Positions 58,554 to 59,867 of a stretch of DNA of 64,000 nucleotides are shown piece after piece. The DNA lies in the IMG/VR virus record IMGVR_UViG_3300030339_000006; one strand, written 5' to 3'. The translations under genes were made by a program, and so were the position numbers. The first letter of the stretch is position 1, and each line of letters begins with the position of its first letter. Source of the DNA: a virus. The notes beneath the pieces were generated by a model that saw only the letters and a list, made by a program, of their open reading frames with translations, ran no database searches and was not told the origin of the DNA.

Positions 58554-58561
58554 GGTATAAG
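58554..58561 (+). promoter_or_regulatory. GGTATAAG phage promoter-like motif
   Basis: Directly before a tRNA-like element. Confidence 0.6.
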
Positions 58562-58571
58562 TAATGTGAGA

Positions 58572-58645
58572 AAGACAAGTAGCTCAACTGGTTAGAGCAT
58601 AATCATACCCGATTAGTGTTGGGGGTTCGAGTCCCCCCTGTCTTA
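58572..58645 (+). ncRNA. tRNA-like RNA or tRNA pseudogene (6-nt loop ATACCC, no CCA)
   Basis: Canonical D arm TAGCTCAACTGGTTAGAGC and T arm GGGGG-TTCGAGT-CCCCC. Confidence 0.6.
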
Positions 58646-58675: not shown

Positions 58676-59452
58676 ATGGAAAAAGAATCTGGCTTCATCA
58701 TGACCGCCCTCGGTGGCCACGCCCTGCAGAACATCGCCGGGGCGAAACTCGTTAAATCAAAAAGCTTTATCACGGATACCGCCAAGCATTTGACTGCTGG
58801 AGCACTGGGGCGTAATGGCCGTAATGGTACTCTGAAGGAAGGCTTGAAGACGGCAGTGACCAGTGTCGGTGTGCCGGAAGCGGTAATGGCTCACAACCGT
58901 GCGTATGCTGCAGGACAGGGATTACACCATCGAGCCAAAGCTCTCGGGGTTAACCTGGAGAATCTTGGTCGTCGTGACGTCGCGAAAATGCGAATGGCAG
59001 CAGAAGGCCGTCTTCCGGAGAAACACCGCACACCTCTCACGGACCGAGCTCGAGATCTCTTGAAGGGTAATCACCTTCCGAAGAAGACGTTGAAGGCCGG
59101 GCACATTAAGGAGATTATGAAGCGTCCTGCAGGTAACCTTAAGCCCCACAGCACCAAGGCAATCGTCGCTGGGAACGCCGTAGCGTCGGTAGCAGAACCG
59201 GGAATCGGGGTGTTAAACGCCGCTAAGTTTGCGACGGAGCACAAGGGCTTCCAGAAAACCCGAGTGGGTAAATACATCGAGCACAACTTCGTGCACAAAC
59301 CGTTGACCGACGCCTTTAAGAAAGGTGCGACAGGCCAGGCGGTGAATAAGGCGAAGGAGTTGGGCTACAAATATGGCGTCAACGGGGCCGTTGGTGAAGC
59401 AATCTCACAGGCTCATAAGGCCGGGGCTAAAGCAGTCGGGAGAGTAAAATGA
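58676..59452 (+). CDS. Basic Gly/Ala-rich protein (candidate virion internal protein)
   Basis: Lys/Ala/Gly-rich; begins MEKESG. Confidence 0.6.
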
Positions 59453-59508
59453 CAGGCATCGGGATTATCGCAGTAGCCATCATCATCGTCTGGTGGTGGA
59501 ATCGATGA
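59449..59508 (+). CDS. 19-aa hydrophobic peptide [19 protein letters not shown]
   Basis: ATGA overlaps on both sides; GGAG RBS. Confidence 0.4.
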
Positions 59509-59651
59509 GCTACGAACATAAACGTGGTGACATCAAGGAGAGCGCCGTAAAGGCGCTACTCTTCGACCCTCTTTTTAGACAGCGAATTGTGGTGGCTAAG
59601 AAGGGGAAGGGGTCCTATCGCCGTGTCAAAGCGGCAAAGGCTTACCCATAA
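59505..59651 (+). CDS. arfA: Alternative ribosome rescue factor A (48 aa, C-terminally trimmed)
   Basis: [40 protein letters not shown] matches the ArfA signature ALL.DPLFRQR....KKGKGSY.R. Confidence 0.9.
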
Positions 59652-59802
59652 ACTTCGTGATCTTCGGCGGCTTGAATCCTACGGTCGCCTTAACCTTTTC
59701 AACCAGCTGACTCACTGAGCCCTGGCGGATCGCCTTCGGTCCCGGGATCACCGAGTTCGAAGCGACATTGTAATTCTGCGTGTAACGTGCGGGATTAATC
59801 AT
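59626..59802 (-). CDS. 58-aa basic protein converging on and overlapping arfA
   Basis: GGAGGT RBS; [11 protein letters not shown]...KPLPL. Confidence 0.5.
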
Positions 59803-59816
59803 AGCGTACCTCCAAA

Positions 59817-59845
59817 TTGATTTTACCCTGCCGTCAGTGTATAGT
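59817..59845 (+). promoter_or_regulatory. sigma70-type promoter
   Basis: TTGATT-17-TATAGT. Confidence 0.55.
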
Positions 59846-59867
59846 CGAGTAAAACAGGAGGCCTCCT

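Follow-up and report, generated by a model that had tools for sequence, protein, structure and literature searches.

We found that the phage DNA analysed here (the window, i.e., the whole stretch of 64,000 nucleotides taken from the IMG/VR virus record IMGVR_UViG_3300030339_000006) carries a true ArfA-family gene, whose resemblance to the family in sequence lies far beyond a chance match, and which probably supplies the phage with an ungated rescue factor of its own. ArfA is known from textbooks as the reserve for ribosome rescue, its synthesis being gated by the very pathway that it backs up. Indeed, the E. coli arfA gene encodes 72 residues and contains a stem-loop that leads to termination or RNase III cleavage, thus giving a non-stop message and tmRNA tagging of the product (PMC8012679). 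The gene of the window is an ArfA-family member by its protein and a variant by its regulation, the latter because it lacks the regulatory hallmark of the family, namely the non-stop mRNA. Taken as a whole, the data are best explained, and in our view with good likelihood, by an ungated, RF2-recruiting phage ArfA, the production of which would not depend on the state of tmRNA. The gene is placed as follows:

59505..59651, plus strand: arfA, 48 codons plus TAA, without the 3′ regulatory hairpin or tail

Family membership, carrier and conservation of the gene

Translation of this interval reproduces exactly the 48 residues that the first-pass annotation had read from it, and the ORF ends in the genuine TAA that had been claimed. 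The HMM search proposed there for the ArfA identity settled the question, since the Pfam model PF03889 matched with 67.9 bits (cut-off 25.5, E-value 5.2e-19) over profile positions 2–41 of 44; phmmer against the PDB also retrieved E. coli ArfA, as present in ribosome structures, at an E-value of 2e-12, and no model of NCBIfam or PHROGs matched the 48-residue protein. When aligned with residues 3–41 of E. coli ArfA, the phage protein is identical at 24 of the 39 positions (62%). The features said to be conserved are present, with A17 of the phage protein aligned with A18 of E. coli in a segment that is also conserved around it, and with DPLFRQR and KKGKGSY identical, the latter being followed by RR; KKGKGSYRR was invariant across the family alignment made here. 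As for the start of the gene, the N-termini of the homologues agree with the ATG at 59505, which is preceded at 5 nt by a ribosome-binding site (GGTGG) and shares an ATGA with the TGA of a 19-codon micro-ORF. The GTG at 59493 retained by the ORF finder was rejected as the arfA start, since it adds four residues without any match in the homologues.

The carrier is a 176-kb phage of the lytic type, rich in tRNA genes and syntenic with Salmonella phage Arash. The source virus record comprises 176,021 bp (rated 100% complete) with 24 tRNA genes and no tmRNA, and profile searches of this genome for SspB, the RF-1/RF-2 domain and peptidyl-tRNA hydrolase found none of them. One RNA-ligase family had no match in the phage genome, and a second had none either there or in the controls. 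When the neighbourhood was compared with isolate phages by Megablast, the tRNA genes alone gave matches; at the protein level, identity to Arash amounts to 70% for ArfA, 63% for the upstream 258-aa protein (gp100) and 28% for the downstream protein (gp98).

An arfA gene is present in six phage genomes of 172–183 kb (the window's, Arash, L004, L005, L006 and L022), and the orthologues of the Arash type have 47–50 residues, a conserved frame, genuine stops and 70–73% identity with the protein of the window. Between the window and L004, dN is 0.17 and dS 1.68 (i.e., near saturation), giving a dN/dS of 0.10. From these comparisons, arfA is under purifying selection, and because its orthologues are conserved with such a ratio, the gene is maintained by selection and is no recent host fragment. 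The best bacterial matches were found in Arsenophonus and Mannheimia (~72–74%), Salmonella reaching 66%. Note that in Arash the corresponding gene, gp99 (L001 3923–4147), carries the erroneous name ‘ribosomal protein L2’ and was annotated from an incorrect start further upstream; the true Arash arfA begins with an ATG behind AGGAGA and has 47 codons followed by a TAA. The Arash proteome table lacks gp99 and lists its neighbours, with gp100 detected in particles.

The 3′ end in bacterial and viral arfA loci

The first-pass annotation had further claimed that the phage copy lacks the whole regulatory 3′ part and is trimmed to its active core, and the trimmed reading was upheld by hairpin position, folding of the stop region and tail length when the gene was set against bacterial loci. 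The comparison covered 80 bacterial arfA loci (77 usable for hairpin position) and 49 loci from viral contigs, and the strongest local hairpin was sought in the 240 nt that follow the KGKGSY codons. In 76 of the 77 bacterial loci, this hairpin (−19 to −43.5 kcal/mol) starts less than ~40 nt after these codons and is contained in the ORF or spans its stop, whereas that of the window is found more than 110 nt after them, within the next gene. In addition, the 101 nt around the phage stop fold no better than their shuffles (z −0.88), while Xenorhabdus and Pantoea arfA, used as positive controls, gave z-scores of −5.97 and −4.01, respectively. A terminator-like site was searched at the phage arfA and none is present, so that neither hairpin nor terminator stands at or before its stop.

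The tail of the phage protein, counted after KGKGSY, has 10 residues and is neither hydrophobic nor LAA-ending; many bacterial ArfA tails are hydrophobic, or end with LAA as the ssrA tag does. Once the loci were dereplicated, the median tail was 11.5 residues in 26 viral clusters versus 24 in 29 bacterial ones, and the tail did not exceed 15 residues in 20/26 viral versus 2/29 bacterial clusters (Mann-Whitney p 5e-6, a value that ignores relatedness). For the folding of the first 90 nt after the motif, the median is −18.7 kcal/mol in viral and −35.6 kcal/mol in bacterial loci. Among 131 family representatives drawn from a library of 1.8 billion proteins, the median tail has 32 residues, and that of the window stands at the low extreme. 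As a separate observation, many bacterial ArfA ORFs end in ...LAA (Pseudomonas, Stutzerimonas, Azotobacter, Aeromonadaceae, Vibrio and Alteromonadaceae; loci L090–L148). This ending resembles the ssrA degradation tag and therefore suggests, by analogy, a possible built-in degron on the full-length bacterial product.

The first-pass annotation had proposed to look for similarly trimmed copies in other phages. Most viral clusters are short as counted above, and short forms recur across unrelated viral contigs, but others keep a terminator or a long tail. Indeed, five viral clusters (L027, L029, L043, L051 and L066) display a terminator-like hairpin with a U-run, placed within the reading frame or overlapping its stop, and three further ones have long tails of the bacterial type with hairpins. 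The idea that all viral ArfA genes are ungated was thus ruled out by the in-frame terminators, and because some viral genes keep them, the loss of gating is no general phage rule. On these sequence features, viral ArfA genes fall into gated and ungated kinds, and the ungated kind comprises the gene of the window, its Arash-type orthologues, that of Pseudomonas phage pf16 and the abundant marine short type.

Operon layout, coding RNA structure and the question of gating

The features that surround arfA in the window, together with the other copies of the motif found at the head of its unit, are the following:

58554..58563, plus strand: GGTATAAGTA motif, probable late-type phage promoter of the arfA unit (8 copies in the window)
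13406, 15672, 19936, 27943, 40817, 48072, 56900 and 58554, all on the plus strand: GGTATAAGTA copies obtained by motif search
58573..58644, plus strand: tRNA-like gene with an abnormal anticodon loop (Rfam tRNA, 38 bits versus a gathering threshold of 29)
58676..59452, plus strand: 258-aa protein, orthologue of Arash gp100 (63% identity over 252 residues)
59449..59508, plus strand: hydrophobic, Trp-rich micro-ORF of 19 codons, read by translation, with ATGA overlaps at both ends
59626..59802, minus strand: conserved convergent ORF of 58 codons with its own GGAGG site, its last 26 nt being antisense to the arfA end
59817..59848, both strands: divergent pair of sigma-70-like promoters (TTGATT-17-TATAGT on the plus strand, for the next gene)

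The eight copies of GGTATAAGTA compare with 0.04 expected in the window, and mostly stand directly before ORF starts, in all cases on the plus strand; three copies were also found in the 8-kb Arash locus. The motif resembles the T4 late promoter, TATAAATA, and is probably the phage's own late-type promoter. The tRNA-like gene that follows it received no amino acid from ARAGORN, which reported a two-base ‘anticodon’; in the relatives, its acceptor, D and T arms are conserved and its anticodon arm is hypervariable, with indels. Given its place after the promoter-like motif and ahead of the first ORF of the unit, this gene may act as an RNA-processing signal. Downstream, the stop of the 258-aa gene overlaps the start of the micro-ORF (ATGA), the stop of which in turn overlaps the start of arfA. 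The unit thus seems to start at the late-promoter-like GGTATAAGTA and to run through overlapping ORFs to arfA, which would be its last cistron and coupled in translation to those before it; the expression of arfA is therefore probably late and coupled rather than constitutive, the term used in the first-pass annotation.

The Arash-type relatives also have a hydrophobic, Trp/Tyr-rich micro-ORF of ~20 codons directly before arfA (L001 3916–3984; L004 ~2915–2970). In Arash, L004 and L005, a short GC hairpin and five U occur at or just after the stop of this micro-ORF, ahead of a separate arfA ribosome-binding site (AGGAGA), an arrangement reminiscent of attenuation through a leader peptide, whereas no such hairpin was found at the micro-ORF/arfA junction of the window, which has the direct ATGA overlap instead. 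On the opposite strand, orthologues of the convergent ORF (44–58 aa) overlap the arfA 3′ end by 26–35 nt in five relatives; the N-terminus of this ORF reads M-I/E-N-P-A-R, it has its own promoter-like site (the minus-strand site of the divergent pair is predicted to serve it, the plus-strand site being conserved in the Arash-type relatives), and no match to it was found in Pfam and PHROG. Two other candidates were set aside. The Rfam ‘SgrS’ match at 59504–59576 (19.7 bits versus a gathering threshold of 37) was taken as a chance match. A tRNA-gene neighbourhood was rejected as a general trait of viral ArfA, since the Arash-type loci and two others alone have tRNAs within 2.5 kb.

This layout, with the structure of the coding RNA, bears on an alternative that we regard as rather unlikely, in which arfA would still be gated: its structured RNA, or a duplex formed with the convergent transcript, would be cut (e.g., by RNase III), leaving a stop-less or inactive message, and the output would be set by the RNase, by tmRNA status or by infection timing. 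The arfA ORF folds with an MFE of −57.4 kcal/mol and is far more structured than dinucleotide shuffles (z −4.46) or its synonymous permutations (z −3.41, 0/300 as stable), whereas control coding segments of the same phage have a mean z of −0.32, a single one of the 55 reaching −3 or lower. Upon synonymous recoding, viral full-type arfA ORFs gave a z of −2 or lower in seven of eight cases, a value that the same 38 codons did not reach in 13 bacterial arfA genes (median near −0.8). Gating is also consistent with the in-frame terminator kept by other viral copies and with the convergent overlap kept in all five relatives; because the conserved convergent ORF overlaps the last 26 nt of arfA, there is room for antisense effects. 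However, RNAalifold on the alignment of the arfA ORF found no single conserved structure (−1.9 kcal/mol), the one hairpin examined was 66% paired versus 57% in shuffles while being derived from the window's own sequence, and RNA structure could as well give resistance to RNases. We observed structured coding RNA in the window and in L020, L023, L025, L027, L028 and L029, with z-scores of −2 to −4.9 against synonymous recodings.

The ungated reading may be extended, in a tentative way that we hold to be doubtful, to a functional pair formed by ArfA and a tRNA of the same phage. The genome encodes a tRNA(CUA) of the amber-suppressor type with an encoded CCA end (G000:C1:23167–23242, minus strand, outside the window), which is kept with its anticodon and 86–91% identity in all six Arash-type short-ArfA genomes (L151–L155 ~1501–1576); TAG is the rarest stop among the long ORFs (27/228). 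Read-through by suppressors has been documented to give rise to non-stop complexes (Ueda 2002, as cited in PMC3985003). As a pair, UAG read-through would bring ribosomes to mRNA 3′ ends and overload tmRNA, the ungated late ArfA would resolve the non-stop complexes without tagging their products, and the structured arfA RNA would keep its own message whole during the decay of other mRNAs. A suppressor tRNA as a general partner of ArfA was rejected, as none occurs among the eight tRNAs listed for pf16.

Proposed activity and relation to known systems

Under the ungated reading that we prefer, the basic segment of the phage ArfA would enter the mRNA channel left empty when a ribosome stalls at the 3′ end of a truncated message, its N-terminal half (the helix around A17 and the strand around RQRI) would recruit and activate the host RF2, and the peptide would be released without an ssrA tag. 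In bacteria, with the arfA stop removed or buried by the hairpin, ArfA is destroyed through tmRNA as long as the latter is not saturated; in contrast, the phage ArfA would accumulate whenever its operon is expressed, independently of tmRNA status, because an accessible TAA stands ten codons past the motif, without any hairpin, terminator, or hydrophobic or LAA tail. The likely benefit would be more free ribosomes and untagged products as non-stop complexes build up in the infected cell. Overall, we infer RF2 activity, tmRNA escape, expression timing and phage benefit from the gene and its setting, and the role in countering host defence or mRNA decay that had been proposed earlier would be a purely inferential addition.

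The length of the protein is compatible with such an activity. The active form of E. coli ArfA lacks the last 17–18 residues, the cryo-EM structures allowed no more than 46–48 residues to be modelled, and a form cut to 40 residues is inactive while those of ~54–60 residues are active (PMC8012679). With 48 residues, the phage protein exceeds the inactive form and covers the part modelled on the ribosome; it ends near E. coli residue 49, i.e., between the inactive and the active forms. Its sequence departs from E. coli ArfA at E30-K31-N32, which is V-V-A in the phage, and at the KH motif (K44 H45), which is described as fitting into a pocket of the mRNA channel (PMC8012679) and is replaced by AA. 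These substitutions, with the divergence of the C-terminal part, would fit a quite unlikely alternative in which the protein is an ArfA-derived ribosome binder without release, occupying the channel, competing with tmRNA-SmpB or titrating RF2, possibly of use for preventing the tagging of phage products; indeed, A18T abolishes ArfA activation, and ArfA(A18T) separates binding and RF2 recruitment from it (PMC8012679). However, the A18 equivalent and the RF2-contacting N-terminal half are kept under purifying selection, and a mere channel plug is improbable since it would not need this conserved half. The KH motif, moreover, is no strict family criterion, because Pseudomonas-type bacterial ArfAs likewise lack it. 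Finally, that the gene is a passenger (a captured host gene fragment, silent or without any role in infection) is very improbable, although it is tiny, missed or misannotated in Arash and pf16 and missing through its orthologue from the Arash proteome table, given its presence in six genomes with saturated synonymous change and the dN/dS reported above, its bacterial matches, which are best in Arsenophonus and Mannheimia rather than in Salmonella (i.e., it is not host-like), its ribosome-binding site and coupling to upstream ORFs, and the recurrence of short forms in unrelated viral contigs.

If the ungated reading holds, a phage ArfA without the gate suggests that non-stop stalling or ssrA tagging limits phage yield, and that phages may counter stalling by supplying rescue capacity themselves. 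The gene of the window also provides a natural minimal ArfA of 48 residues without KH for structure-function work, and Arash, a cultured Salmonella phage with an orthologue, makes the gene directly testable. Altogether, tail length, taken with whether the stop is accompanied by a hairpin or terminator, offers a simple rule to sort phage ArfA-like genes into gated and ungated ones.

The uniqueness implied by the first-pass annotation goes too far, since two earlier papers annotate a phage ArfA and the stop-less design is retained in some viral copies; our literature search found no paper on an ungated phage ArfA. Pelagiphage HTVC027P gp30 is an annotated ArfA, reportedly with high transcription at both early and late stages of infection (PMC12753301); another is g10 of Citromicrobium phage RXM (PMC8953757). 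These papers discuss neither stop codons nor hairpins nor regulation (PMC12753301, PMC8953757). Both phages infect Alphaproteobacteria, and a survey of 2,376 genomes of this class found arfA in none. Short-N-terminus PF03889 members were observed in phages of alphaproteobacteria (RXM and Roseobacter phage CRP-212, L150 ~1480–1605) and in marine viral contigs (L045–L062), the CRP-212 ORF being unannotated beneath the end of a large annotated gene. The pf16 ArfA ORF is also unannotated, an ORF of the opposite strand being annotated over its start, and this phage encodes in addition an SspB analogue (an adaptor for ssrA-tagged proteins).

Compared with these known systems, E. coli ArfA (YhdL; PF03889; PDB 5MGP, 5MDV, 5U4I, 5H5U and 7OJ0) shares A18, DPLFRQR and KKGKGSY with the phage form. 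They differ in that the E. coli gene has 72 codons with an RNase III/terminator hairpin and encodes a hydrophobic tail and KH, whereas the phage gene has 48 codons with an accessible stop, encodes neither, and sits inside a phage tRNA island. HTVC027P gp30 and RXM g10 are phage-borne PF03889 members like the gene of the window, but of the short-N-terminus type, and RXM g10 (L149 1495–1677) has 60 residues with a long, partly hydrophobic tail versus the 10-residue tail of the window. The small basic PF03889-like phage ORFs of L027, L029, L043, L051 and L066 retain the bacterial gating design, which the window gene lacks. The pf16 ORF (L002 4001–4144) comes close to the window gene by its 47 residues, a Pfam ArfA score of 72.5 bits, a genuine TGA and a short tail, but it belongs to a T4-like phage of a different lineage and with a different host genus. 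The closest counterparts remain Arash gp99 and its equivalents in L004, L005, L006 and L022, in which the neighbours, the convergent overlapping ORF and the upstream micro-ORF are all as in the window; in Arash and L004, a GGTATAAGTA copy stands just upstream of the micro-ORF and arfA, whereas that of the window heads the whole unit at 58554.
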